Shown: positions 934 to 15,076, numbered from the stretch's first letter. The stretch is DNA of 64,000 nt from Chloroflexota bacterium (GCA_003228175.2 QGNQ01000003.1:28360-92359), one strand, 5' to 3'. Notes: generated by a model not told the origin, from the sequence alone. Program-made: numbers and translations.

Positions 934-3597
934 CTAGGCCCGGCTCGGGCGAGCCGTGACCTTCAGCGGACGCGGCGCGGCGAGCGGGATGAGCGGCGGC
1001 GGCGCACTCCGATCGACGCGCAGCCGCTGCAAGCGCAGGGAGTTGGCCATCACGCTGAGGCTGGAGAGGGTCATGGCGAAGCCCGCGACAATCGGCTCCA
1101 GGAAGCCGCGGTCGCCGAAGAGCCACTCGAGCCCCCCCGGCACGGGACCAATGACCTGGAAGACCTGGTAGAAGAGCCCTGCCGCTACGGGGATCAGCAG
1201 CAGGTTGTATCCGAAGGCCCAGATCAGGTTCTGATGAATCGTGCGCAAGGTCGCGCGACTGACGGTGAGCGCCTGCGCAACACCGCGTGGGTCGTCACGC
1301 ATGAGGGTCACGCCGGCGGCTTCGATGGCGACATCCGTGCCGCCGCCCATGGCGATGCCCACGTCCGCTTGCGCGAGCGCCGGGGCGTCGTTGATGCCGT
1401 CGCCGACCATGGCGACGACGTGCCCCTGCGCCTGCAGCCCCGAGACGACAGCCGCCTTCTCGTGCGGTTGGACCTCTGCGATGGCTTCGTCCAGGCCGAG
1501 CGTCGCGCCGACCGCTCGCGCGGCCCGATGATCATCGCCGCTCAGCAGCACCGTGCGAAGCCCGGCATCCTGCAGACGCCGCACGGCCTCCGCGGCGGCG
1601 GGCTTGATCGTGTCGGCGAGGGCGAGGACGGCGACGACTTCCCCGTCGACGGCGACGTAGACAGGTGTCGCGCCTTGGGAGGCGAAACGCTCCACGTGGG
1701 GCGCGGCCCCGGCGAGATCGATACCAGCCGTTGCCATGAGGCGCGCGTTGCCGACCTGCACAAGGGCCCCGTCGACAGTGGCGTGAGCGCCCTGTCCAAC
1801 GACGGCCTGGAATCCGCCAGCCTGGGGAAGGCGAAGAGCGGCAGCGCGGGCGGCGTCCGTGACGGCTCGCGCCAGGGGATGTTCGGAGTCGCGCTCGACG
1901 GCGGCGGCGGCGGTGAGGACGGCGTCACGCGTCTGCCCCGAGAGCAGGGCGACATCGGTCAGGGCGGGGGCGCCGCGCGTAAGGGTGCCGGTTTTGTCGA
2001 AGATCACGGTATCGACGGCGGCGAGACGCTCGATGGATTCGGCGGAGCGGAAGAGCACGCCGAGTTCGGCCGCACGACCGCTACCCGCCATGATCGCCGT
2101 GGGGGTGGCGAGGCCGAGCGCGCAAGGGCAGGCGATGACGAGCACGGCGATGGCGTTGAGTGTCGCCAGGGTGAGGGAAGGCGAGGGTCCCAGCGCGAAC
2201 CAGAGCCCGAAGGAGGCAGTCGCGATCAGCAGGACGGCCGGCACGAAGACGGATGCGATGCGGTCGGCGAGGGCCTGGACAGGGGCCTTGGACGCCTGCG
2301 CCGACTCGACGAGGGCGATGATCCGGGCCAGCACGGTGTCCGCGCCCACCTGGGTGGCGCGGATGCGCAGGGATCCGCCGCCGTTGATCGTTGCGCCGAA
2401 TACGGGCTCGCCGGGCGCCTTGTCGACGGGCATGCTCTCGCCGGTCAGCATTGACTCATCGACGGTGGTGCGGCCATCGACCAACGTGCCATCGACGGGG
2501 ATCTGCTCGCCGGGCAGGACTCGCATGACGTCACCGACGGCAAGCTCGGAGACCAGCAGCTCGACCTCCTCACCGTCGCGGAGCACACGGGCGGTCTTGG
2601 GTCGCAGGTCCAGCAGACGCCGGATCGCGGCCGAGGTGCGTCCTTTGGCGCGCGCTTCCAGATAGCGGCCCAGAGAGACGAAGCCAATGATGATCAGGGC
2701 CGTCTCATAGAAGGTCTCGCGCTCCAGGCTGGCGTCCCGGAAGGGGCCTGGGGCGAACGTCGCGACGATGCTGTAGGTCATCGCGGCGGAGGTACCGAGC
2801 GCAATGAGGACGTTCATGTCGGCGCCGCCATGGCGAACCACGGTGAGGGCGGCGCGGATGATGCGACGGCCGCTGAAGGCGAAGACCGGCATGGCGACGA
2901 CGAAGAGCGTGAGAAAGAGGGCGTCCTTGTCGAAGTTGAGGTCCGCCCAGCGATTGATCTGCAGGGCGATGAACGCCGCCCAACCGAGGGCGAGCGCGGC
3001 GGCGGCATCGATCAGCAGGCTGCGACGTTCGGCCGCTTTGCGGCGCTCCTCGGCCTCTCCGGCATCCAGCGCCGTGTCGGTGTCGGAGAGGATCACTTCG
3101 TAGCCGACGGCGGCGACGGCGACAGCGAGCTTTTGCGGTGAGACGGCGCCGCTGACGAATCGCACGGTGGCGCGTTCGGTCGCGAGGTTGACCGTGGCCG
3201 ACTCGACGCCATCCAGGCGCGTGAGCGCCCCCTCAACTTTGGCGACGCAGGAAGCGCAGTGCATGCCGGCGAGCGCGAGCGTGACCTCATCGACTGGGAC
3301 GTTGTAGCCGGCCTGTGCGACGGCGGCCGTGAGTTCGGCCTGGTCTGGAGACGCGCCGGAGAAGCGCACGGTCGCGCGCTCCGTGGCGAGGTTGACGGCG
3401 GCCGAGTCGACGCCGGGGACCGCGGCCAGGGCCTTCTCCACACGGCCGACGCAAGCCGCGCAGTGCATGCCCGCGATCGGCAGATCCAGCGTGCAAGCGT
3501 CGCCCCGCTCGGACGCGGCACCCGGGTCAGGCTCCGGGGCGAAGCTCTCCGGCGGCGGTGATGTATCAAGCATGGGGAACAAGGTGGTGTCGGGCAC
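934..3597 (-). CDS. copA: Heavy-metal (Cu+-type, P1B-1) P-type ATPase
   Basis: Two HMA domains (GMHCAAC, GMHCASC), [25 protein letters not shown], plus YN and MxxSS transmembrane motifs. Confidence 0.92.
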
Positions 3598-3600
3598 CAG

Positions 3601-4053
3601 CTACTCGCTCTCGCCGGTCGCGGGCAGGGCCGCGGCCAGGGCCCGCTCGTGCAGGCCGCGCTCAATCACGGGGCAGTGGTAGTGGCCGGTGCTGCGCTCG
3701 CTCTGGAGGCGCGCGCCAGTCTCGGCGATTGTTCGGTCGAGGACATCGCGCAGAGCGACAGCCTCGGTGATCCAGCCGTCGATTTGATCGCGCTTGCTGC
3801 GCAGCAGTTGGAAAACGTGGTCGCAGTTGACCGCGTCGCCATCGGAGGCCTGGAGGATGTCGGCGATCTCCGAGAGCGAAAACCCGAGCGTCTTGGCCTT
3901 CGCGACGAAGTCGAGCCGGTCCCGGTCGGCGCCGCCGTAACGACGGTAGCCCGACGCTTCTCGGGCGGGCGCGGGCAGCAGGCCCGTGCTCTCGTAGTAG
4001 CGGATCGTCTTGGCGGGAATCCCGCTCCGCTTCGCGAGCTCGCCAATACGCAT
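3601..4053 (-). CDS. MerR-family heavy-metal-responsive transcriptional regulator
   Basis: Likely start ATG 4053 (MRIGELAKRSG..TIRYYE..GLL...SGYRRY) after a GGAGG RBS; C-terminal HYHCPVI; 3 nt upstream of copA. Confidence 0.88.
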   Translation of the reverse strand: MRIGELAKRSGIPAKTIRYYESTGLLPAPAREASGYRRYGGADRDRLDFVAKAKTLGFSLSEIADILQASDGDAVNCDHVFQLLRSKRDQIDGWITEAVALRDVLDRTIAETGARLQSERSTGHYHCPVIERGLHERALAAALPATGESE

Positions 4054-4077
4054 CGATCTGCCTCCATCCGTGCTCCT

Positions 4078-4109
4078 ACCGTAAACCCTCCCCTCGGCAG
4101 GAAGGTCAA
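4078..4109 (-). promoter_or_regulatory. MerR-type promoter/operator for the merR-copA operon
   Basis: The minus strand reads TTGACC-N20-TACGGT, with the dyad ACCTTCC-N8-GGAGGGT overlapping the -35 and spacer. It resembles CueR/ZntR-type long-spacer promoters. Confidence 0.75.
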
Positions 4110-4151
4110 ACCGGGCCCAGGCCTGAGGAGGCGCTCGATACACTTGCGCCC

Positions 4152-5405
4152 ATGCCACGCGTGCTGCTCCTGATCCCCAGCGCCAGCTATCGGGCGCACG
4201 ACTTCCTGGCGGCGGCGGGGCGGTTGGGGCTGGATGTTGCCGTGGCGTCGGACGTGGGCCAGCCGCTGAACGCCTTCCCGGAGCGATCGCTGACGGCCGA
4301 TTTCAGCGACGTGGAGGCCGGGGCCGCCACGATCGCGCGCTACGCGGACAGCTATCCGGTCGACGCGATCGTGCCGGTGGACGATGGCGGAACAGCGCTG
4401 GCGGCACGTGCATCGGAGCTGTTGCGGCTGCCCGCGAACGCGCCCACGGCGGTGGGCGCGACTCGCAACAAGGCGGAACTGCGTCAACTGCTGGCGGAGG
4501 CGGGGCTGCCCTCGCCGGCGTTTCGGGTGTGCGCGTTCAATGAGGACGCAGCGGCGGTTGCGACGGAGCTCTCGTTCCCGGTGGTGGTCAAGCCGCTGGC
4601 CCTGGCGGGCAGCCGGGGCGTGATGCGGGCGGACGATGCAGGCGCGTTCGTGGCGGTCGTCGAGCGGCTGCGGCGGATGCTGGAACAGCCGGCCACCGCG
4701 GCCGCCTGCGGGGCGACCGCCGACCGCTATCTGGTGGAGGGCTACCTGCCGGGAGACGAAGTCGCGCTGGAGGGGCTGCTGTTGGACGGGTCGTTGCAGG
4801 TGCTGGCGCTATTCGACAAGCCCGATCGCCTGGAGGGGCCGTTCTTCGAGGAAACGATCTACGTGACCCCTTCGCGACTGACGGCCGAGCGGCAGGCGGA
4901 GATTCGCGAGGTGTCGGCGCGGGCGGCATTGGCGTTGGGGCTGACGCGGGGACCGCTGCACGTGGAGTTGCGCCTGAATGACGCGGGCGCGTTCCCGATC
5001 GACATCGCCTCGCGGACGATCGGCGGACACTGCGCGCGATGTTTGCGATTCGACGTCGGCGAGGGGGCCGGCGCGGCAGCGTCGCTGGAAGAAATCGTGC
5101 TGCGACAGGCGGTCGGGCTGTCGCTGGAGCGGCTGGAGCGAGAGACGCCGGCGAGCGGTGTGATGATGATCCCGACGCCCGGCGCGGGGCGGCTGCATGC
5201 CGTGCACGGTCTGGAGGAGGCACGAGGGGTGCCGCTGGTGTCCGAGGTGACGATCGCGACGCCACTGGGGCACTTGTTCGTGCCGTTGCCGGAGGGCGGC
5301 GCCTACCCGGGGTTCATCTTCGCGCGGGCGGAAACGCCGGAGGCGGTGGTGGGGGCGCTGCGCGCGTCGCACGCCCGGCTGCGCTTCGAGCTGGAGCCCG
5401 TGTAA
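4152..5405 (+). CDS. ATP-grasp domain protein (peptide/amide ligase-like)
   Basis: RNKAELR, FPVVVKPLALAGSRGV, YLVEGYLPGDEVALEG, GPLHVELRL, IDIASRTIGG. Confidence 0.85.
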   Translation: MPRVLLLIPSASYRAHDFLAAAGRLGLDVAVASDVGQPLNAFPERSLTADFSDVEAGAATIARYADSYPVDAIVPVDDGGTALAARASELLRLPANAPTAVGATRNKAELRQLLAEAGLPSPAFRVCAFNEDAAAVATELSFPVVVKPLALAGSRGVMRADDAGAFVAVVERLRRMLEQPATAAACGATADRYLVEGYLPGDEVALEGLLLDGSLQVLALFDKPDRLEGPFFEETIYVTPSRLTAERQAEIREVSARAALALGLTRGPLHVELRLNDAGAFPIDIASRTIGGHCARCLRFDVGEGAGAAASLEEIVLRQAVGLSLERLERETPASGVMMIPTPGAGRLHAVHGLEEARGVPLVSEVTIATPLGHLFVPLPEGGAYPGFIFARAETPEAVVGALRASHARLRFELEPV

Positions 5406-5458
5406 GCGCGCTAGCTCTTGTCGGGCGCCGGTCGATGATCGCGGTAGGGAGTCGCGCG

Positions 5459-5926
5459 ATGCCTGCCAACGATTCGAACCCGCACGCATACGATGCCGGC
5501 ACGCCGGTGCAGGCGGTGATGAGCCGGGACGTGTTGTCTGTCGACGCGGACACCACGCTGGGTGCGGCACGGGAGCAGATGCGCCTGGCCGGCGTGCACC
5601 ACTTGCTGGTCTACGACCGCAGCCGACTGGTGGCGGTGATCTCCGACCGGGATTTGCTGGCGCATCTGAGCCCGCGTCTGGGCACGATGGCCGAGCAGCG
5701 GGACGACACGAGCACCCTGCTGCGTCGGGTGTTCCAGGCCGCGAGCTACCAGCCGGTCACGATCCCCTGCGGGGCGACGATCGCCGCGGCCGCCGCGATC
5801 TTGCTGCGGCACACGATCTCATGCGCGCCGGTCACGGACGCGCTGGGAGAAGTAGTCGGCGTGTTGACGTCGCGAGACCTGCTGGGGGCGCTCAGCCGCA
5901 TGGCGCCCGAGCGTCGCGCGAGCTAG
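5459..5926 (+). CDS. CBS-pair domain protein
   Basis: VQAVMSRDVLSV...HHLLVYD..LVAVISDRDLL and ISCAPVTD..GEVVGVLTSRDLL; AGGGA upstream of ATG 5459. Confidence 0.8.
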   Translation: MPANDSNPHAYDAGTPVQAVMSRDVLSVDADTTLGAAREQMRLAGVHHLLVYDRSRLVAVISDRDLLAHLSPRLGTMAEQRDDTSTLLRRVFQAASYQPVTIPCGATIAAAAAILLRHTISCAPVTDALGEVVGVLTSRDLLGALSRMAPERRAS

Positions 5927-5933
5927 CGAGCCG

Positions 5934-6713
5934 CTAGTCGGACGCCTGCGCCGCCAGCAGACGCGACTCAAAGGCGCGAGCGATGTCCGGCAGGGCCTCG
6001 CTGAGCACGCTGGAGTTGGCCTGTATGAGCTGCAGGGTGCCCAGCACGCGGCCGCGCGGGATCTGGTGCATTTGCAACTCGAACTCGAAGGGCAGACCAG
6101 AGATCTCGATGCTGATGAGCACGCCGAAGGCGACGCTGTCGGCGAGGAGGGCCTCGGCGTCAACGAGCTCGACGCTGGTCAGCGAGATCGAGGGGCCGTC
6201 CGGGTCCGCGCCGCCGAGCGAGCTCTCCATGGCGTCGGCGAAGCACTGCTCCAGCACGGTGGACTGCGTCAGCAGCTCCTGTGCGGCCAGGCGGCCGGCG
6301 CTGACGTCGAGGTCGCCTTCGTAAACCTCCACCTCGGAGCCAACCTGAAGGAACTCCAGGCCCCCACTCTGCTGGAAGTCGCGCTCGCGCTCGACGAGGG
6401 AATCGTTGTCGTCGCCCTCGCTGAAGGCCTCTGCCAGGGCGCGCAGGTCTCGGCATGACTCGGAGGCGAGGAAGTCGGAGTCGTCGTCGTCGTCGGAGCT
6501 GCTGCCGGAGTCGGTGTCTTCTTCGACCTCCCAGTCGCCATCGGGCAGATCGGCGAGTTGGAGCAGGCCGGCGGCGGCGATCGTCTCGGCGTCGGCGAGG
6601 CTCTCGGCGGCGGAGGGCCCGTCGTCGCCACCGCAAGCGGCGAGGGCGAGGGCGCCGAGGAGGAGGAGGGGGAGGAGCAGGAGGGATCGAGATTTCAGGA
6701 GGGTGGGTGGCAT
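5934..6713 (-). CDS. Hypothetical lipoprotein
   Basis: Hydrophobic signal peptide with lipobox LAAC-GG; acidic mature region. Confidence 0.75.
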   Translation of the reverse strand: MPPTLLKSRSLLLLPLLLLGALALAACGGDDGPSAAESLADAETIAAAGLLQLADLPDGDWEVEEDTDSGSSSDDDDDSDFLASESCRDLRALAEAFSEGDDNDSLVERERDFQQSGGLEFLQVGSEVEVYEGDLDVSAGRLAAQELLTQSTVLEQCFADAMESSLGGADPDGPSISLTSVELVDAEALLADSVAFGVLISIEISGLPFEFELQMHQIPRGRVLGTLQLIQANSSVLSEALPDIARAFESRLLAAQASD

Positions 6714-6797
6714 GGTCGGACCTTCCGGGTGCGGTCGAAGTGTTTCACGGGCAGGGGTTAGGCGGGAGAGGAGGGACCGACCACGGATCGCCAGTGC

Positions 6798-7748
6798 TCA
6801 GAAGACGATCACGCAGCGACCACGGGTGCCGCCGGCTTCGAGGCGGGCATGCGCGTCCGACGCCTTGGTAGGCGGGTAGGTGGCGGCGACACGGAGGGCG
6901 ATGCGGCCGTCCTCGGTGAGGCGGCGGAGTTCGTCCAGCAGGTCGGCGCGATGGTCGTAGGTGGTGACCATGGTTCGATGGAAGGCGATCTCGCGCTCGC
7001 CGGTGCCGCGCCAGCCACGCACGGAGACGAATGCGCCGCCGTCGCGGAGGGCGCCAACGGCGAGTTCGTTCTGGACGGCGCCGTCGGCGAGGGCATCGAC
7101 GCCGTCGGGCGCGACCTTGCGGATCTGGGCCGCGATATCGTCGCCGCGTGGCACGACGATATCGGCCCCGAGGTCGCGGACGAGGGCTTCATCGGCGGGA
7201 GAGGCGTCGGCGATGACGCGCACGCCAGCGACCTTGGCGAGTTGCACGACGTAGCCGCCGTAGCAGCCGGCGGCGCCGGTCACGGCGATGGTCTGGCCCG
7301 GCTGCAGGGTGAGCTGGTCGAGCGAGAGCCTGGCCGTGAGGCCGTTCATGGGCAGTGCGGACGCTTCCGGGTGGGTCGCGCCGGCGGGCGCGCGCGCGAC
7401 GGAGTCCGCGGCGAGGACGATGCTCTGTCGGTATGCGCCATGGCTGCCGCTGGGGACGACCATGGCCATGACGGGATCCCCGATGGCGAGATCGGTCGTC
7501 GTGCCGGGGCCGATCTCGTCGATGACGCCGGCCGCGTCCATGCCGGGGATATAGGGCGGCGGGTCCTTGCGCAGCGTCTCCGCGCGGTCGCCGTTGCGAA
7601 CGAACGTGTCGGTTGGGTTGACGGCGGCGGCGTGGACCCGCAGTCGGACCTCGCCGGTCGCGGCGTGGACCTCCGGCAAGTCGACGACTTGCAGCGCTTC
7701 GGGGCCGCCGAACTCGATCACGCCTACGCCTTGTGTGGCACCTTGCAT
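6798..7748 (-). CDS. NADPH:quinone reductase-like MDR-family oxidoreductase
   Basis: FGGPEAL, AVNPTD, PGMDAAG, VTGAAGCYG; likely start ATG 7748. Confidence 0.85.
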   Translation of the reverse strand: MQGATQGVGVIEFGGPEALQVVDLPEVHAATGEVRLRVHAAAVNPTDTFVRNGDRAETLRKDPPPYIPGMDAAGVIDEIGPGTTTDLAIGDPVMAMVVPSGSHGAYRQSIVLAADSVARAPAGATHPEASALPMNGLTARLSLDQLTLQPGQTIAVTGAAGCYGGYVVQLAKVAGVRVIADASPADEALVRDLGADIVVPRGDDIAAQIRKVAPDGVDALADGAVQNELAVGALRDGGAFVSVRGWRGTGEREIAFHRTMVTTYDHRADLLDELRRLTEDGRIALRVAATYPPTKASDAHARLEAGGTRGRCVIVF

Positions 7749-7844
7749 GGGATCCTGCTTCCTTTTCGCCGGGGGGGGGCCGGCCCGATTGATCGTCGCT
7801 GCCGACAAGTGTGATTGATCGGAGGCGGACTCGCACGCCCGGGC

Positions 7845-7946
7845 TCAGCTCGTAGCGGGGATCGTGTCGTCTCCGCCGACGCAGGCAGCGAGGGCGACCG
7901 CGCCGATCAGGAAGACACCGAAGATCAGGAGGAGCCGTCGGGGCAT
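7845..7946 (-). pseudogene. 33-codon ORF consisting of little more than a lipoprotein signal peptide (remnant or mini-lipoprotein)
   Basis: MPRRLLLIFGVFLIGAVALAACVGGDDTIPATS then TGA; same LAAC-xGGDD style as other lipoproteins in the window. Confidence 0.5.
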
Positions 7947-8001
7947 GTGATTCTCGGGAGCCCCTGGAGGAAGGATCGCAGGGGGACGGTTGATACGACG
8001 C

Positions 8002-9105
8002 TCAGTCATCGTCTGATCGGGGAACGATCTCGATTCCAGGCGGGGCGATGTCCGCGCGCTGCCTGATCGCTTTCTCCGCCCTTGCCTTCAGCTCTTCAAC
8101 TGATACGTGCTCGCGCGGAACCCCCGCAGCATCAAGTTCACCCAAAAGGTCCTGGATGATCAGACTGGCTAGCCCTGGAGCCGTCGCAGTCACGATTTCG
8201 CGCGGGTGGTTGAGGCCAAACGGATAAATTCCTCGTCGAATTAGATCTTCAATCTCGTCAGGTGAAACGGTCTCGGACCGAATGTCTTGTTCCACGGCCG
8301 CTCCGAAGGGCGTACGGGGGCGCCGCTGTCGCGGAGCATCAGGCTCGACAACTCTCTCAAGCTCGCGGATCACTGCAACATGGCCGTTGAAGAGGTTCGT
8401 GACGTCGTCATAGTACGAAAGCGCATGAACAAGGAGGTACGACATAGCCTCGTACTGGCCGCGCCGCGGAGTGAGCTCGGCGAATAGTGTCGCCCACCAG
8501 TCGCCCATCGGCGTATTGCTGTCGACCGGGAATGCACGCATATCGGACAGAAGGAGCGAGAGCGTTTCGTGGAGATGACTGGGACGGGTCGATCCATCGG
8601 GCGCAACGTCGAGGAAAGCGCCGCTTCCGACCGCATCCGACAATGCCCCGATCTGAAGGCGGTCCCCAGTGACGTGGCGCATCAACCCCATAATAATCAG
8701 ATCGCGTTGGGCCTGAGAGACAGGAATCTGACTCGTGGGATCCGCTTTAGGATCCAACTGCAGGGATTCCCGTACCTCGGAGAGCATTGTGTGACGCGCG
8801 TGAGCGGAGTCATGGTATCGAGACACCATGTGGCTTAAGTTCGCCGTGAACTCACTGACAAGACGGCGGCGTCTCCGCGCCTCCGCTTCGGCACGCTCCC
8901 GCGAGCGACGTAGGTATTCGACCAGCCCGACTGTGACGTACGTGCCGAGGACGACACCGAACGCTTCGGTTGCGATATTCACGGAGGCATCATCACTCGG
9001 CCCGAGAAACGCGAGCAGGAGGAAGCCCGCAACGAGCACAGCAGCACCTGCTGTCCATAACTGGAACGTAGTGCTAGCGAGGACCGCTAGGAGGGAGTGC
9101 TTCAC
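8002..9105 (-). CDS. Hypothetical protein with two N-terminal TM helices
   Basis: 367-aa ORF, visibly more AT-rich than its neighbours; no motif recognised. Confidence 0.65.
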   Translation of the reverse strand: MKHSLLAVLASTTFQLWTAGAAVLVAGFLLLAFLGPSDDASVNIATEAFGVVLGTYVTVGLVEYLRRSRERAEAEARRRRRLVSEFTANLSHMVSRYHDSAHARHTMLSEVRESLQLDPKADPTSQIPVSQAQRDLIIMGLMRHVTGDRLQIGALSDAVGSGAFLDVAPDGSTRPSHLHETLSLLLSDMRAFPVDSNTPMGDWWATLFAELTPRRGQYEAMSYLLVHALSYYDDVTNLFNGHVAVIRELERVVEPDAPRQRRPRTPFGAAVEQDIRSETVSPDEIEDLIRRGIYPFGLNHPREIVTATAPGLASLIIQDLLGELDAAGVPREHVSVEELKARAEKAIRQRADIAPPGIEIVPRSDDD

Positions 9106-9115
9106 CTCACACCAA

Positions 9116-10543
9116 CTACGACATGTTCAGAGGAGCCAACTGCTCCTCGGTGGGCTCCGCTCAACAGAACCAGGCTTCGGAGAGGCCGGGGACCCAGCCC
9201 GCGGGCGGCGACTCAGGTCGTGGCAAGGGCAGGCCGGCCGCCAGGGCGGCGTCGGAGCGGATGCGGGTGAAGACGCGGGCGTTGTCGGTGGGCTCGTCGT
9301 GCTTGCAGGAGACGCGAGCGACGAATTCGGCGAGCTTGGCCTGCAAGGCGTCGACGGCGGGGTCTGGGTTGCGCCAGGTGTGCGTGAGACCGTCGGGGTC
9401 GAAGCCGGTCAGGTGGCCGTCGGTTTGCGCTTGGGCGATGAGCGGGGAGCCGGGGGGGAGCAGCAGCCGCAGCCCATATTGCACGGGGGGCACGCTCTGG
9501 ATGAGGTCGTGGCGGGCGATGAAGTCCAGGATGGCGTTGAAGTCATTGAGGGTGGTCCAGGGCGTGAAGGGCAGCCAGGTGGGGCGAAGGGGGAGTCCGG
9601 CGTCGCGGGTGAGGGTGAGGGCGCGCTCCATGTCGGCGGCGGTGTGGCCTTTGTCGAGGCGCTGGAGCAGGGCGTTGTCGACCGACTCGAAGGCGCTGGT
9701 CACCCAGGCGACGCCGAGGCCGGGGAGGGCGCCCGCCTCCTCTTCATGCTCCAGCAGGTGCTCGACTTTAATCGTGACGTCCAAGCTGAGGCCGGGGTGA
9801 CGCCGCGCGAGGATGCGCAGCAGCGACATGGCGTGGGGCACGGCGTTGAAGAAGTCCGGGTCGCCGAAGGTGATGTGGCGCGCGCCCAGCGCGAGTTGGG
9901 CGTCGATGTCGGCGAGGACGATTTCGGGCGGGACGAGGCGCAGGCGACCGGCGTACGTGGGCGTCAGGGGGCAGTGTGTGCAGCGGTGCGCGCAGCCGCG
10001 CGTTGCTTCGACGTAGCCGGCGAGTCGTTCTTGGGGGGCGCCGTCGGGCAGGACGATGGTGGCGCGGGCGTATTCATCGAGCGAGGGCAGGCCGCTGCGA
10101 TCGGGCAGGGGCATCGCCTCTCGGGGGAAGAGCGGCTGCGGGCCGGCGCCTGCGACCGCCAGTGGAGTGCGCGTCTTGATGGCGTCCGCCGTCGCGACCA
10201 GGGGGCCTTCGTACTCGCCGCCGATGACCGCGCTGACGGGGGAGTCGTCGGGCAGGTGCGCCGCCAGCTGTGAGGCGTAGAGGCCGTAGAGCACGATCGG
10301 CGCTTCGAAGTTCTGCTCGCGCAGTTGCGCGGCGAGTCGCAGGGCGAGTCGCGAGGCGGTGTGCATGGGCACGGAGATGGCGAGGAGGTCGATGTCGGCG
10401 AAATGGGAAGCCGCGGCGGGCTGGACGGCGAGATCGAGCGTGCGCACGTCGTGGCCGGCGTCGCGCAGCGCGGCGGCGGGAGAGGCGAGACCGAGCGGCT
10501 GATGGCCTTGCTCGTAGGCGGAGACGAGGAGAACACGGGTCAC
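9116..10543 (-). CDS. CUAEP-tail radical SAM (seleno)protein with B12-binding-like N-terminus; Sec predicted at TGA 9161-9163
   Basis: CAHRCTHC radical SAM motif. The end reads TGG TTC TGT TGA GCG GAG CCC ACC GAG GAG CAG...TCG TAG = WFC-U-AEPTEEQLAPLNMS*. Confidence 0.85.
9130..9148 (-). promoter_or_regulatory. SECIS-like hairpin for the radical SAM UGA
   Basis: GAGGAGC-AGTTG-GCTCCTC, a perfect 7-bp stem starting at +13 after the UGA. Confidence 0.7.
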
Positions 10544-10641
10544 GGCCCCAGCGTAGACGCCAGGGGACGGCGGGGCGGGTAGTATGTGGCGGCTTTGGGA
10601 GCGGGTGAACGGATCCAGGCCAGGGAGCCGGGGGGTGGACT

Positions 10642-12828
10642 ATGCGACGCATCTTCACGATTCCAGTGCTGGCTGTGCTGGTGGGGCTGTTCGGGCTGCT
10701 GGGGCAGGGGGACTCGCGGCTGGTGGCGAGCAACGCCCCCGGCGGGGTGGGGGTCGCGCAGGTGCCCGATCAAGCGCCGCAGACGCGCGAGGTGATCCTG
10801 CTGGACGGCTGAAATCTGGTGGGCTGGACCGGCGGCGACGTCGCGACGAGCGTTGTGACGAACGCGCTAGGGGGCGTGTTCCGCAGCATCCACGCCTTCG
10901 GCGGAGAGACACAAGCGTTCGAGACGGTCACGGCGACGGGGCCGGCGTTCCTGAACAACCTGTCGCAGGTGGACGGCGGGGATGGCCTCTGGCTCTTCTC
11001 CCACGGCGACACGTTCTGGGAGCAACCGGTGATCACGGGGGCACGATCCGTGGCGCTGTCGGCGGGCTTCAATCTGGTCACGTGGACGGGCCTGCACGGG
11101 ATGCCGATCGCGGACGCACTGGCGTCGCTGGGCGAGGCGGTGGAGAGCGCGTTCACCTATGAGGAGCTGTCGGACACGTTCCTCAGCTTCGGCCCGGCGC
11201 TGCCGCCGGCCTTGAACACGCTGGCGGCGCTGGCCTACGGGGAGGCGCTGTGGCTCCGGGTCAGTGAGGCGCGGACGTGGGAGCAGCCCGCGCCGCCGGC
11301 GGGCAGTGTGGCAGTGAGCGCGGACGGACTGGCCTCGGTGACGGTGCCGGTGGGGCAGTCCGCCGACCTCGTTGTGCGGGCGATTCCCGCGGAGGAGTGG
11401 CCGGCGGAGATCAACGGACAGCCGGTCATCGCGGGGTACACGGTTGCCCCGGCCGCGCTCGAGCTCGCGAGCGGACTACGCACGTCCAACGGCCCGTTCA
11501 CGTCCGAATCGGGCTTCTGGGAGTTCGAGGTGACGCCGGACGGTGATCCGGCCCCGATTGTCACCCTGACACCAACCGGGTTCACGGTTTCCCCACCCCC
11601 CCGCCAGTTCTATGACGGCACGGCGGACGGCGATTTCGTCCGGACGCCTATTGAATACGGCGTCTCCGAGGCCAACCGCGTGAGTTATCGCCGGCCGTTC
11701 ACATTCGCTGATCTGTCACAGGAGGAAGTTCTGATCTTCCTGACAGACGCTCCAGCCGTGCAGGGGCTGTTCGAGTTCAACCATGAAACGGGCCATGCGA
11801 CCTTTTCGGACAGCCCGTTCGGACCATTCAGGTTCACGTACGGTCCAAATGATTCGCGCCAGACGAACTTCGATGTGCAGCCCGGCGCCGACGTCCCGAT
11901 CGCGCCGCCGAATGGCTTCTGCGCGAACGAAGCAGCACGCGGAAGCCTGGAATATCTCTTCGATACCTCCTGGGGTGACCACACCTTGAAGTTCGAAGTG
12001 ACGGACGCGGAGCTGTGCCCCGGCGGCAGCGGCGATCCCGGTGGTGGGACCTGCATGCCCGACGTACTCATCCTCGATTCGCTCTTCGATCTGATCGATG
12101 ACCAGCTGAACCCCGGGATTCTGGGATTCGACGGCCCGTTCCTCGAAGAGTTCGGTGACCGGGTAGATCAGACGCGCATCGTGGGCAGCTCGTGCCCGCT
12201 CACCGAACAGCAAATCGAGGACTGGATCGCGCCCCTCATTCCGGCGTCGCCGAGCGCAGATGGCGTCTTCGCTCCCGGCGGAGACGCCCCGCTCGGCCAG
12301 CCGTTCGATGTCTTCAACGACGATCTTGGCCTGCTGGATCACCTTCACGTCGCGCAGGCCGACGCGACGCCATACGTCATCGTGGCCATGGAGCTCGTCG
12401 ATGCGGTCCCCCTCGCCAGCGAGGACCTCTTCTTCGTCTACGCGGCCGTCTTCGATCGGGACGGCAACCCCACCAACAACTTCGTACCGCTACCGCAGTT
12501 CCCCGGGGACTACTTCCTGGGCACGGACCTCTGGTACGAGGCGAAGTACAGCCCGATCAGCGGCGAGTGGGCGCTGTCGCGTCGGATCGTGATCGGTGGC
12601 GCCCCTCGCTTCTTCCCCACCGACGCCCTGGTCCTGATCGCCGGCAACGTCATCTACTTCGTCATCCCCCAGGACGAGTTCACTGTCGGCAGCGGGGAGG
12701 ATCTGCCGTTCCGCATGACCGCCTTCACTTACGACAAGACCGACCCGTTCGGCTTCGGGGCCGGCCTGGCGGCAGGCGACACGACGCCCTTCGTGCTGGA
12801 TCCGCTGGCGTTGCTGCCGCTGCCGTAG
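10642..12828 (+). CDS. Large secreted/surface protein interrupted by an in-frame TGA at 10810-10812 (nonsense allele or recoded)
   Basis: ATG 10642 gives the signal peptide MRRIFTIPVLAVLVGLFGLLG. The frame continues ...EVILLDG-TGA-NLVGWTG into ORF 10819-12828, which contains the repeat SVALSAGFNLVTWTG. Confidence 0.7.
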
Positions 12829-12862
12829 GGCGGGTGGGGACGAGAGTGGGCGAGAGGGGCCG

Positions 12863-13477
12863 CTACTTGCTGGCGGCGCCTTCCTTCTGGGGCTGGTAGT
12901 AGGGGTTGGTGCCGGCGGCGTGGTCCGTGGTATCGACGACTTCGACGATCTCGGGGATGTGTTCCTTCACCGCCACTTCGATGCCCTGCTTGAGGGTCAC
13001 GTTGGCCATGCCGCAACCGGCGCAGCCCCCGCCCATCTCGATATAGGCCTTGTCCCCCTCCACGGCGAGCAGCGTGACAACGCCGCCGTGTGAGGCGATG
13101 CCGGGGTTGACGTACTCGTCGAAGAGGATCTGGACGCGCTCTTCCAGCGGGTTGTCCCAGACGGAGTTGGGGTTATCGAACTCCAGGCCGCTGGCCTCAG
13201 GCCCTTTGTATTCGTAATGGATGGCGACGCCGTTGAGCTTGTCGGCGTTCTCGCGCTCGACGAAGACGTGGAAGCCGTTGGCGTCGACGGTGGTGTCGTC
13301 CGGCTCCGCGCCCTGCTCGACAAGGGTGATGACGTGGTCGAATCCCTGACCGCCGCGACCGACAATCTTGAGTCGCAGGCCAACGACCGTCTCGGGATAA
13401 CCCGCGATCGCGGCGCTGAGCGCGGAGACCGCGGCCTCTGAGAAGGCAAGTTTGATCTCGCCGGTGGCGTCTGTCAT
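12863..13477 (-). CDS. nfuA: NfuA-type Fe-S cluster carrier (A-type-like domain + NifU-C)
   Basis: N-terminal degenerate HesB/IscA-like domain (GLEFDNPN); C-terminal VNPGIASHGG...MGGGCAGC...TLKQGIE...VDTTDHAAGTNPYY. Confidence 0.88.
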   Translation of the reverse strand: MTDATGEIKLAFSEAAVSALSAAIAGYPETVVGLRLKIVGRGGQGFDHVITLVEQGAEPDDTTVDANGFHVFVERENADKLNGVAIHYEYKGPEASGLEFDNPNSVWDNPLEERVQILFDEYVNPGIASHGGVVTLLAVEGDKAYIEMGGGCAGCGMANVTLKQGIEVAVKEHIPEIVEVVDTTDHAAGTNPYYQPQKEGAASK

Positions 13478-13624
13478 GCCGCAGCCTCCTTCGTGTGATC
13501 CGTGATCGCATCGTAGCGCAGGCGTCGTGTGTGGAGGGCGGGCGTGATCCTGGGCACGGGCGGCGGTCGTCTGCGCCCGTATGCTGGCCGCGATAGGCGT
13601 GGCGGACTGGAGGAGGAGGGGCGG

Positions 13625-15076
13625 ATGCGCAAGCCCGACTACGACATCGTGGTGATCGGTGGGGGCCCGGCGGGGTTGGCGATCGGTCGCTTCGCACCCA
13701 AGCTGGGAGCGCGTGTGGCGATCGTCGAGGAGGGGCGGCTGGGCGGCGACTGCACATGGTCGGGCTGCGTGCCCAGCAAAGCGTTGATCGCGAGCGCGCG
13801 GGCCGCGTCGGCGGGGCGCAACCGGGCCGCGCTGGGTCTGCCGCCGTTGCCGCCGCCGGAGCGAGTGGAGATTGGGCCGGTGCTGACGCGCATCAAGGCG
13901 CTGCAGGAGCAGATCTACGAAGAGTCGGACCGGCCCGACTTGCTACCGGGTGTCGATGTGATCTCGGGGCGGGGACGCTTCGTATCGGCGGACGCGATCG
14001 AGGTGGACGGGCGCCGGATCACGGCGGCGACGGTCGTGATCGCGACGGGGGCGGGGCCCGTGGTGCCGCCGATTCCGGGACTGGCGGAGTCCGGCTATCT
14101 GACGAACCACAGCATCTGGGAGATCGCGCGACTGCCGGATCGGCTGACAGTGATCGGGGGCGGGCCGATTGGCCTGGAGCTGGGGCAGGCGTTCCAGCGG
14201 CTCGGGTCGCAGGTGACAGTGGTGGAGATGGCGCCGCAGATCCTGCCGCGGGCGGAGGCGGACGTCGCGCAGGCGCTGAGCGTGGAGTTGGAAGCCGAGG
14301 GGATGATCATCCACACGCGCACGGCGGCGACGGAGGTGCAGTGCGAGGGCGATCAGCATCGGCTCATGCTGCGCGGACCGGAGGGGGAGTTGACGGCGGA
14401 GGGCGACGCGTTGCTCGTGGCGGTCGGTCAGCGACCGAACGCGTCGGATCTGGGGCTGGAGGCGGCGGGGGTGCGGACGACGGACGGGGGCGGGGTCCGG
14501 GTCGACGCACAGTTGCGGACCTCGAACAAGCGCGTGTACGCCTGCGGCGATGTGATCGGCGGCTATCAATTCACGCACACGGCCGCGTACGAGGCGAGCG
14601 TCGTGATGCACAACGCGCTGTTCCCCCTGCGCAAGCAGCGGGCCGACTACTCCACGACGCCCTGGGTGGTGTTCACGGATCCGGAGGTCGCCGGAGTGGG
14701 GCTGACCGAGGCGGAGGCGCGGGCCAAGCACGGGGACGGGGTGCACACCTATGAACGGTCGTTCCGGGAGCTGGACCGAGCGCTGCTGGATGGTCGGTGC
14801 CCGGGGTTCTTGCGCATCGTGACGGTGGGGCGGCGGCGCAAGATCGTGGGGGCGCAGATCGTGGGACCGTCGGCGGGCGAGCTGATTCAGGAGCAGGTGC
14901 TCGCGATCTCGCAGGGCATGAACGCGATGGAACTGGCGATGACGCACCACGCCTACCCCACGCTGAACGAGGCGTCGCGTTGGGCGGCGGTGGCGGCGGT
15001 GGACGACATGCTGCGTTCGCGATCGGTGCAGCGGGTGGTGGGGATCGCGCGGGCGCTGAACAAGCGGCCTTGGTGA
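13625..15076 (+). CDS. Class I pyridine nucleotide-disulfide oxidoreductase (MerA/LpdA-like)
   Basis: GGGPAG, GGDCTWSGCVPSKAL, GGGPIGLE, YACGDV, HAYPTLNE; GGAGGAGG RBS before ATG 13625; no MerA C-terminal CC pair. Confidence 0.88.
   Translation: MRKPDYDIVVIGGGPAGLAIGRFAPKLGARVAIVEEGRLGGDCTWSGCVPSKALIASARAASAGRNRAALGLPPLPPPERVEIGPVLTRIKALQEQIYEESDRPDLLPGVDVISGRGRFVSADAIEVDGRRITAATVVIATGAGPVVPPIPGLAESGYLTNHSIWEIARLPDRLTVIGGGPIGLELGQAFQRLGSQVTVVEMAPQILPRAEADVAQALSVELEAEGMIIHTRTAATEVQCEGDQHRLMLRGPEGELTAEGDALLVAVGQRPNASDLGLEAAGVRTTDGGGVRVDAQLRTSNKRVYACGDVIGGYQFTHTAAYEASVVMHNALFPLRKQRADYSTTPWVVFTDPEVAGVGLTEAEARAKHGDGVHTYERSFRELDRALLDGRCPGFLRIVTVGRRRKIVGAQIVGPSAGELIQEQVLAISQGMNAMELAMTHHAYPTLNEASRWAAVAAVDDMLRSRSVQRVVGIARALNKRPW

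Follow-up and report, generated by a model that had tools for sequence, protein, structure and literature searches.

A minus-strand gene in a 64,000-nucleotide stretch of DNA from a Chloroflexota bacterium (GCA_003228175.2 QGNQ01000003.1:28360-92359; hereafter, the window) encodes a radical S-adenosylmethionine (SAM) protein, and the locus raises the question of where this protein ends and what its C-terminus might do. The called open reading frame (ORF) runs from a GTG at 10543 to a TGA at 9163..9161 and yields 460 amino acids, ending in ...PGLSEAWFC. The original prediction, made from the sequence alone, held that the gene is truncated in the ORF track and that the true C-terminus is WFC-U-AEP, in which U is selenocysteine (Sec). 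Translation bears out the reading frame that this requires: past the TGA, which follows a Cys codon, the frame reads GCG GAG CCC and continues as AEPTEEQLAPLNMS to a TAG at 9118..9116, and we infer a gene product that extends 15 residues past the called ORF and carries a vicinal Cys460-Sec461 pair. The features of the gene that are needed for the following analysis are:

9116..10543, minus strand: full coding sequence of the predicted CUAEP-tail radical SAM selenoprotein (475 codons plus TAG, GTG start, Sec461 = TGA)
9161..9163, minus strand: in-frame TGA read as Sec461, directly after the invariant Cys460 (codon column of the homologs)
9116..9160, minus strand: tail AEPTEEQLAPLNMS and TAG stop (tail alignments; AEPT..QLAPL is conserved in the family, the terminal NMS is specific to the window)
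9130..9148, minus strand: SECIS-like (selenocysteine insertion sequence) hairpin, 7-bp stem GAGGAGC/GCUCCUC, loop AGUUG (covariation and synonymous codon choice)
9971..9994, minus strand: CxxxCxxC motif (C184, C188, C191) of the radical SAM [4Fe-4S] cluster (no variation across 121 aligned sequences)
10196..10528, minus strand: N-terminal Rossmann-type 'B12-binding' domain, residues 6-116 (Pfam PF02310, 39.6 bits)

Decoding of the in-frame TGA

The read-through protein matches the NCBIfam model NF040546, the CUAEP/CCAEP-tail radical SAM (seleno)protein family, with 533.5 bits (expectation value, E, 4.2e-160) against a curated cut-off of 500 bits, over profile positions 1-467 of 468, and the match runs through the U and the AEP tail. 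The protein shares with this family the domain order, the WFC-U/C-AEP tail and the alternation of Sec and Cys; it differs from same-genus members in its last residues, which are NMS where the latter end in D[AL]AL[ST][VI]. Pfam places the Radical_SAM domain (PF04055) at residues 179-319, downstream of the B12-binding domain, and Cys460 is the only cysteine outside the cluster motif that is invariant across the 121 aligned sequences. An AlphaFold2 model has a mean predicted local distance difference test score (pLDDT) of 93.2, falling to 59-65 over the last 15 residues, and the solved folds nearest to it are those of AprD4 and TsrM, each combining a Rossmann domain with a radical SAM core. A sequence search of the PDB with the radical SAM protein gave remote matches only (best E 1.4e-4) and no close solved relative.

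The codon at the Sec461 column was compared across homologs. In a set of 80 loci, drawn as contigs from one genome per species, 78 could be read at this position (loci L057 and L123 were left out of the tail counts, their contigs stopping before the tail), and these comprise 63 TGA, 11 TGC and 4 TGT codons, with no instance of TAA or TAG. The AEPT..QL tail is kept in frame in all 63 TGA forms and runs uninterrupted in the Cys forms. CU and CC tails thus alternate among the homologs, and the family, which is large and spread over many phyla, is mostly a selenoprotein family (63 of 78 species-level genomes). The in-frame TGA is present in 24 of 24 genomes of the same taxonomic family as well as in the window's own genome, and the sole positive genome from another family of the class carries TGC. 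Among the best 120 database homologs, 73 have ...WFC as their last residues and 47 extend through CCAEP; as for the window gene, which is 15 codons longer than called, those 73 records would be shortened, so that most records lack the catalytic tail.

Sec and Cys have also replaced one another repeatedly. On a quick IQ-TREE tree of 78 rows, from which L111 was excluded for its short frame, at least 8 exchanges are required, at least 6 of which are forced by well-supported branches. The candidate explanation that Cys forms are found where the Sec machinery has been lost was rejected, selA being present in 4 of the 5 Cys-form genomes checked, as it is in 4 of the 5 Sec-form genomes; that the choice between Sec and Cys is not accounted for in this way weighs against the ArsL-like chemistry considered below.

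The genome from which the window derives has the means to decode the TGA. Matches above their respective cut-offs were obtained for selA (545 bits), selB (319 bits) and selD (358 bits), and the gene for a tRNA-Sec that has the anticodon UCA and a long variable arm was found at the very start of a contig (G000:C61:2-81), where its 5' end is cut. As a consequence of the gene being cut by the contig end, its score is 40.5 bits against a gathering score of 47, and ARAGORN calls it only when the contig is treated as circular. The selD gene lies outside the window (G000:C8:27124-28056) and itself contains one in-frame TGA, so that SelD is probably also a selenoprotein in this organism. The original prediction had described the radical SAM gene as the strongest anchor for active Sec decoding in the organism; the decoding is supported, and selD provides a further anchor, so that the gene is not the only one. 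Finally, contigs from three public runs, of which one possibly represents the source sample, match the window letter for letter over the TGA, tail, TAG and junction (X2, 9063-9172; X3, 9085-9512; X4, 9022-9328; 0 other letters), which excludes a one-off assembly error as the source of the TGA.

A hairpin within the coding region downstream of the TGA

A 7-bp hairpin had been noted at +13 from the TGA, and it was recovered exactly there: the stem GAGGAGC/GCUCCUC and its AGUUG loop occupy 9148..9130, beginning at the 13th base after the TGA (a spacing of 12 nt), and are present in the minimum free energy fold. On its own, the folding energy is not remarkable: for the 86-nt stretch it lies within chance (z = -1.18), and 28 of 200 shuffled sequences fold equally well or better. 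The significance of the hairpin derives solely from the comparison with homologs. Across 64 TGA forms, pairing of columns 16-22 with columns 28-34 is found in 80.6% of cells, compared with 67.7 +/- 1.4 in shuffles, and cells that have changed on both sides number 69 compared with 26.6 +/- 5.1, a value that none of 500 shuffles reaches. When the partner strand is slid by 1-3 columns as a control, pairing is at most 59.8%. RNAalifold recovers the core of the same helix, and the TGA forms retain a mean of 5.6 of the 7 stem pairs, against 3.7 of 7 in the Cys forms.

Evidence that does not depend on the peptide comes from codon usage within the loop, where the conserved tail residues Gln and Leu are encoded. 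For Leu, TTG or TTA is used by 35 of 35 TGA forms, against a background of 13% TTR among the 3055 Leu codons of the same genes, whereas CTN is used by 10 of the 11 Cys forms and TTR by one. The Gln codon is CAG in 63 of 63 TGA forms (70% background), while CAA occurs in 3 of the 14 Cys forms with Gln at this position. This synonymous bias implies an RNA-level constraint on the loop letters A-G-U-U that applies only to genes whose TGA must be recoded. In the alignment of relatives G24 of the apical loop is invariant, and U25 and U26 are nearly so. SelB-binding elements such as that of Escherichia coli fdhF carry an apical-loop G-U at about this distance from the UGA. The hairpin in the window resembles the fdhF-type SECIS in its short, fixed distance past the UGA, in its location within the coding region and in the apical-loop G-U, and differs from it in the short stem of 6-7 bp and in the shifted register with a bulged A that fits a subset of the relatives. 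A search of the whole window against Rfam at the gathering score returned tRNA-Gly only and no SECIS family. By extension from the standard bacterial mechanism, SelB carrying Sec-tRNA(Sec) would bind this hairpin and insert Sec at the TGA.

One Cys form deserves separate mention: the acidobacterial locus L107, which has TGT at the Sec461 column, keeps a hairpin-like CGGGACC AGTTG GTTTCC together with a TTG Leu codon, a pattern compatible with a recent change from Sec to Cys.

Taken together, the codons of the homologs, the covarying hairpin, the bias in the loop codons, the Sec machinery and the repeated Sec/Cys exchange make it highly probable that the gene is a member of NF040546 in which the TGA at 9163..9161 is decoded as Sec461, and nothing substantive speaks against the decoding itself. 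That the TGA is instead a genuine stop, with the protein ending at ...WFC and the similarity downstream being a relic, is what gene calling implies, as do 73 of the best 120 database homologs. A relic would nevertheless not be expected to stay in frame in every TGA form and to run uninterrupted in the Cys forms, nor to carry a covarying hairpin with loop codons constrained in TGA forms only, and the curated NF040546 model spans the tail in question; in a genome equipped with Sec machinery, we regard a genuine stop as exceedingly improbable. The truncation originally proposed, and the WFC-U-AEP terminus that goes with it, can accordingly be retained.

Kinship with ArsL, conserved partner genes and the possible function of the tail

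The original prediction knew of no established reaction for the family. This agrees with the literature: in a full-text search for 'CUAEP' and 'CCAEP' the family was found named only in the Haft preprint (10.1101/2022.07.06.499078), as a passing mention, which lists it as an uncharacterized CU selenoprotein. A 2026 review on prokaryotic selenoprotein families catalogs two other radical SAM selenoproteins, and its main text contains 0 occurrences of the accession or the name. The family and its Sec are thus already cataloged in NCBIfam and are unstudied functionally; what is new here is the comparative proof of the recoding element, together with a testable hypothesis of function drawn from kinship with ArsL and from two conserved partners.

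After its own family, the protein is matched best by NF040542, the model of the arsinothricin biosynthesis protein ArsL (283.2 bits, E 4e-84, profile positions 1-406 of 423), with the next family at 39 bits. ArsL, a radical SAM enzyme of the CxxxCxxC type, breaks the C-gamma-S bond of SAM and places a 3-amino-3-carboxypropyl moiety (ACP) on As(III), and it has a C-terminal RCCLKC tail that binds arsenic, removal of which abolishes the product without abolishing SAM cleavage (10.1101/2024.02.01.577332). According to a further report, all three Cys residues of this tail bind arsenic, and an Fe-C(ACP) species is formed (10.64898/2026.04.29.721666). Like the window protein, ArsL consists of an N-terminal domain and a CxxxCxxC core followed by a short tail that ends with vicinal soft-ligand residues. 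The two differ in that the RCCLKC tail of ArsL offers three ligands and the CU/CC-AEP tail of the present family two, in that the latter has a C-terminal region that is ca. 55 residues longer, and in their partners, which are ArsM and ArsQ for ArsL and an ATP-grasp ligase and an Nfu carrier here. A search for genuine ArsL genes in 151 genomes of the class to which genome G045 belongs gave none above the ArsL cut-off. The same class yielded 18 sub-threshold ArsL matches, of which the six that were fetched all have a CC/CU tail, encoded with TGA in 2 and with a Cys codon in 4; the 18 are presumably members of the CUAEP/CCAEP family.

The two partner genes in the window are:

4152..5405, plus strand: ATP-grasp gene of L-amino-acid-ligase type, conserved partner (Pfam ATP-grasp_4, LAL_C2 and ATPgrasp_N)
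12863..13477, minus strand: NfuA-like iron-sulfur (Fe-S) carrier, second recurrent partner (Pfam Fe-S_biosyn and NifU; NCBIfam NfuA below cut-off)

When every ORF lying up to about 6 kb from the radical SAM gene was included in a clustering of 79 loci, the dominant neighbor proved to be an ATP-grasp protein of ca. 410-440 amino acids with the domains ATP-grasp_4, ATPgrasp_N and LAL_C2, present at 51 of the loci; 11 of the 28 loci that lack it have less than 2.5 kb of downstream flank. In Acidobacteriota the ATP-grasp gene often starts ca. 50 nt or less from the radical SAM stop, and in the lineage of the window the two genes converge. The association extends beyond adjacency. Among 41 relatives, the ATP-grasp profile has strong matches (E no higher than 1e-165, with one partial at a contig end) in the window's own genome, in 24 of 24 same-family genomes and in G034, which is exactly the set of genomes that holds the radical SAM gene; the other 15 same-class genomes gave 0 strong matches and a single weak one (1.8e-34). 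These relatives are kin, and the co-occurrence amounts to about two independent lineages. Of 10 further genomes in which the radical SAM gene has no ATP-grasp neighbor, 9 encode a strong copy elsewhere. The radical SAM, ATP-grasp and Nfu-type genes may form a widespread module, seen in Chloroflexota, Acidobacteriota, Actinomycetota, Gemmatimonadota, Planctomycetota, Methylomirabilota and others.

No NCBIfam equivalog model matches the partner ATP-grasp gene at its cut-off. The best solved relative of the ATP-grasp profile is BL00235, an L-amino acid ligase from Bacillus licheniformis (PDB 3VOT; E 5e-70 over 19-408, full length), with which the window gene has all three LAL domains in common. 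BL00235 makes Met-Gly and Met-Met, according to a review (PMC6920838), with methionine in the N-terminal position, and its N-terminal substrate is thus a 2-amino-4-(X)butanoate, the skeleton that ACP transfer would create. Homologs of the Nfu-type carrier lie near the radical SAM gene at 29 of 78 other loci (in many Chloroflexota they immediately precede it on its upstream side) and exhibit two N-terminal architectures (A-type plus NifU, and Nfu_N plus NifU), the NifU domain being present in 6 of 6 that were checked. Genes of the YggX/Iron_traffic type are found at 23 loci and DUF169 genes at 11.

Five Chloroflexota loci that are closely related to one another (L053, L058, L062, L063 and L065) have a histone-deacetylase-family amidohydrolase and a major facilitator superfamily transporter between the radical SAM and ATP-grasp genes, and a generic SAM methyltransferase upstream, an arrangement that looks like a small-molecule cluster.

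On the grounds of the ArsL kinship and the gene context of the partners, we tentatively propose a chemistry resembling that of ArsL, in which the Cys-Sec tail would hold the soft atom that is acted upon and the product would then be ligated; it is a possibility, and one that falls well short of being probable. The [4Fe-4S] cluster would cleave SAM, possibly at the C-gamma-S bond, to release an ACP unit, and this unit would be received by a soft atom (metalloid or chalcogen) held on the mobile Cys-Sec tail. The co-inherited ATP-grasp L-amino-acid ligase would then take up the methionine-like amino acid so formed for dipeptide ligation, and the Nfu-type carrier would supply or repair the cluster. 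In its most specific form, the proposal is that the protein is the second ACP-transferring CxxxCxxC enzyme after ArsL, that its tail grips arsenic, antimony, selenium or a similar element, that the ligase makes a dipeptide of the organo-element amino acid, and that Sec serves as a substrate ligand rather than a redox center; all of this together we consider rather unlikely. If true, the ArsL-like proposal would provide a second canonical radical SAM fold that performs non-canonical ACP chemistry and an unusual use of Sec to hold a substrate atom, and the ArsL kinship, the ligase partner of methionine type and the Nfu carrier make the function directly testable.

Several observations weigh against this proposal. 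The score of 283.2 bits is below the ArsL cut-off of 450, the RCCLKC tail is absent, and two conserved soft ligands (Cys and Sec) stand in place of the three Cys residues of ArsL. There is no arsM, arsQ or other ars gene among the annotated neighbor clusters (2, 4, 5, 6, 8, 9 and the lineage-specific ones), the generic methyltransferase at 5 loci not being ArsM-like. The presence of the gene in 24 of 24 genomes of the family is more in line with a housekeeping role than with an antibiotic pathway. In addition, a dedicated Nfu carrier could equally well indicate cluster-consuming chemistry, and a vicinal Cys-Sec pair is also what would be expected of a redox-active tail.

The last two points correspond to distinct alternatives. 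Mammalian thioredoxin reductase possesses a C-terminal Cys-Sec redox arm, and Cys460-Sec461 might likewise form a redox-active selenenylsulfide on a mobile arm, moving electrons or a hydrogen atom in an otherwise canonical reaction in which a 5'-deoxyadenosyl radical acts on a small amino-acid substrate, with no metalloid held. Such a role, the main rival of the ArsL-like chemistry and conceivable without being likely, would suit the location of the vicinal pair on the low-confidence, flexible tail of the AlphaFold2 model and the repeated swapping of Sec and Cys, as in redox selenoproteins; it is also consistent with the canonical CxxxCxxC motif, with the nearest solved folds (AprD4 and TsrM, neither of them an ACP transferase) and with the neighbor clusters being free of ars genes. 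It leaves aside the fact that ArsL is the nearest sequence family by a wide margin (283 bits, the next at 39), and that the C-terminal Cys tail of ArsL has been shown to bind substrate and has no redox role; CU motifs are, moreover, recurrent in metal-handling proteins, as stated in the Haft preprint (10.1101/2022.07.06.499078).

Alternatively, the enzyme could consume or damage its own cluster, or insert sulfur or selenium with the tail acting as a chalcogen relay, in which case the Nfu-type neighbor would be the key partner. LipA is a cluster-sacrificing radical SAM enzyme of this kind and depends on NfuA/NFU1. The recurrence of Nfu-type carriers in two architectures, at the 29 of 78 other loci noted above, and of YggX/Iron_traffic genes near 23 loci is in keeping with such a dependence. 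An Fe-S carrier beside any Fe-S enzyme is unspecific, however, and the only invariant Cys residues are the three of the cluster and that of the tail, with no second cluster site evident, so that we consider cluster-consuming or chalcogen-inserting chemistry decidedly improbable.

DNA specific to the window and neighboring genes

Although the radical SAM gene and its ATP-grasp partner align with same-genus relatives, the DNA between them does not. The same-genus alignment through the radical SAM gene ends at 9129, one base past the 3' arm of the hairpin, and resumes at the ATP-grasp gene, so that 3.7 kb (5413-9129) are specific to the window. This segment contains three ORFs:

5934-6713, minus strand: ORF without family
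6798-7808, minus strand: ORF of zinc alcohol dehydrogenase/quinone oxidoreductase type
8002-9105, minus strand: ORF without family, 367 amino acids, membrane-like by eye

The insertion has replaced the last residues of the tail (NMS for D[AL]AL[ST][VI]) while sparing the whole hairpin. The ORF at 8002-9105, the next gene after the radical SAM gene, gave only a self-match among 8000 candidates scored from a database of 5.8 billion proteins, and no match in Pfam, NCBIfam or PADLOC. The guanine-plus-cytosine (GC) content of 7900-9100 is 0.59-0.61, compared with about 0.70 around it, and the DNA carrying this ORF was probably acquired recently. A distance of only 10 nt between the extended stop and the start of this gene had been put forward in the original prediction; it holds for the longest-ORF start, a GTG at 9105, and not for the sole database gene call (P0122, 345 amino acids), which starts 22 codons later.

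A second stretch, 10546-12862, likewise does not align with same-genus relatives and lies between the NfuA-like and radical SAM genes; its GC content falls to 0.61-0.65 in the second half. It contains a further ORF:

10819-12828, plus strand: ORF of 669 amino acids, with no Pfam, NCBIfam or PADLOC match

PADLOC gave no match for any of the four window-specific ORFs.

At 934-4158, the ATP-grasp gene has as head-to-head neighbors a CopA-like heavy-metal P-type ATPase, which contains two HMA domains, and a regulator of the MerR family, and at 13529-15076 a MerA-like flavin adenine dinucleotide-dependent disulfide oxidoreductase, which scores 378 bits and is thus below the MerA cut-off of 454, adjoins the NfuA-like gene. 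DNA alignments indicate that the synteny of the ATPase/MerR and MerA-like genes holds in same-genus relatives, and a heavy-metal ATPase also lies beside the module at five further Chloroflexota loci (7 in all).

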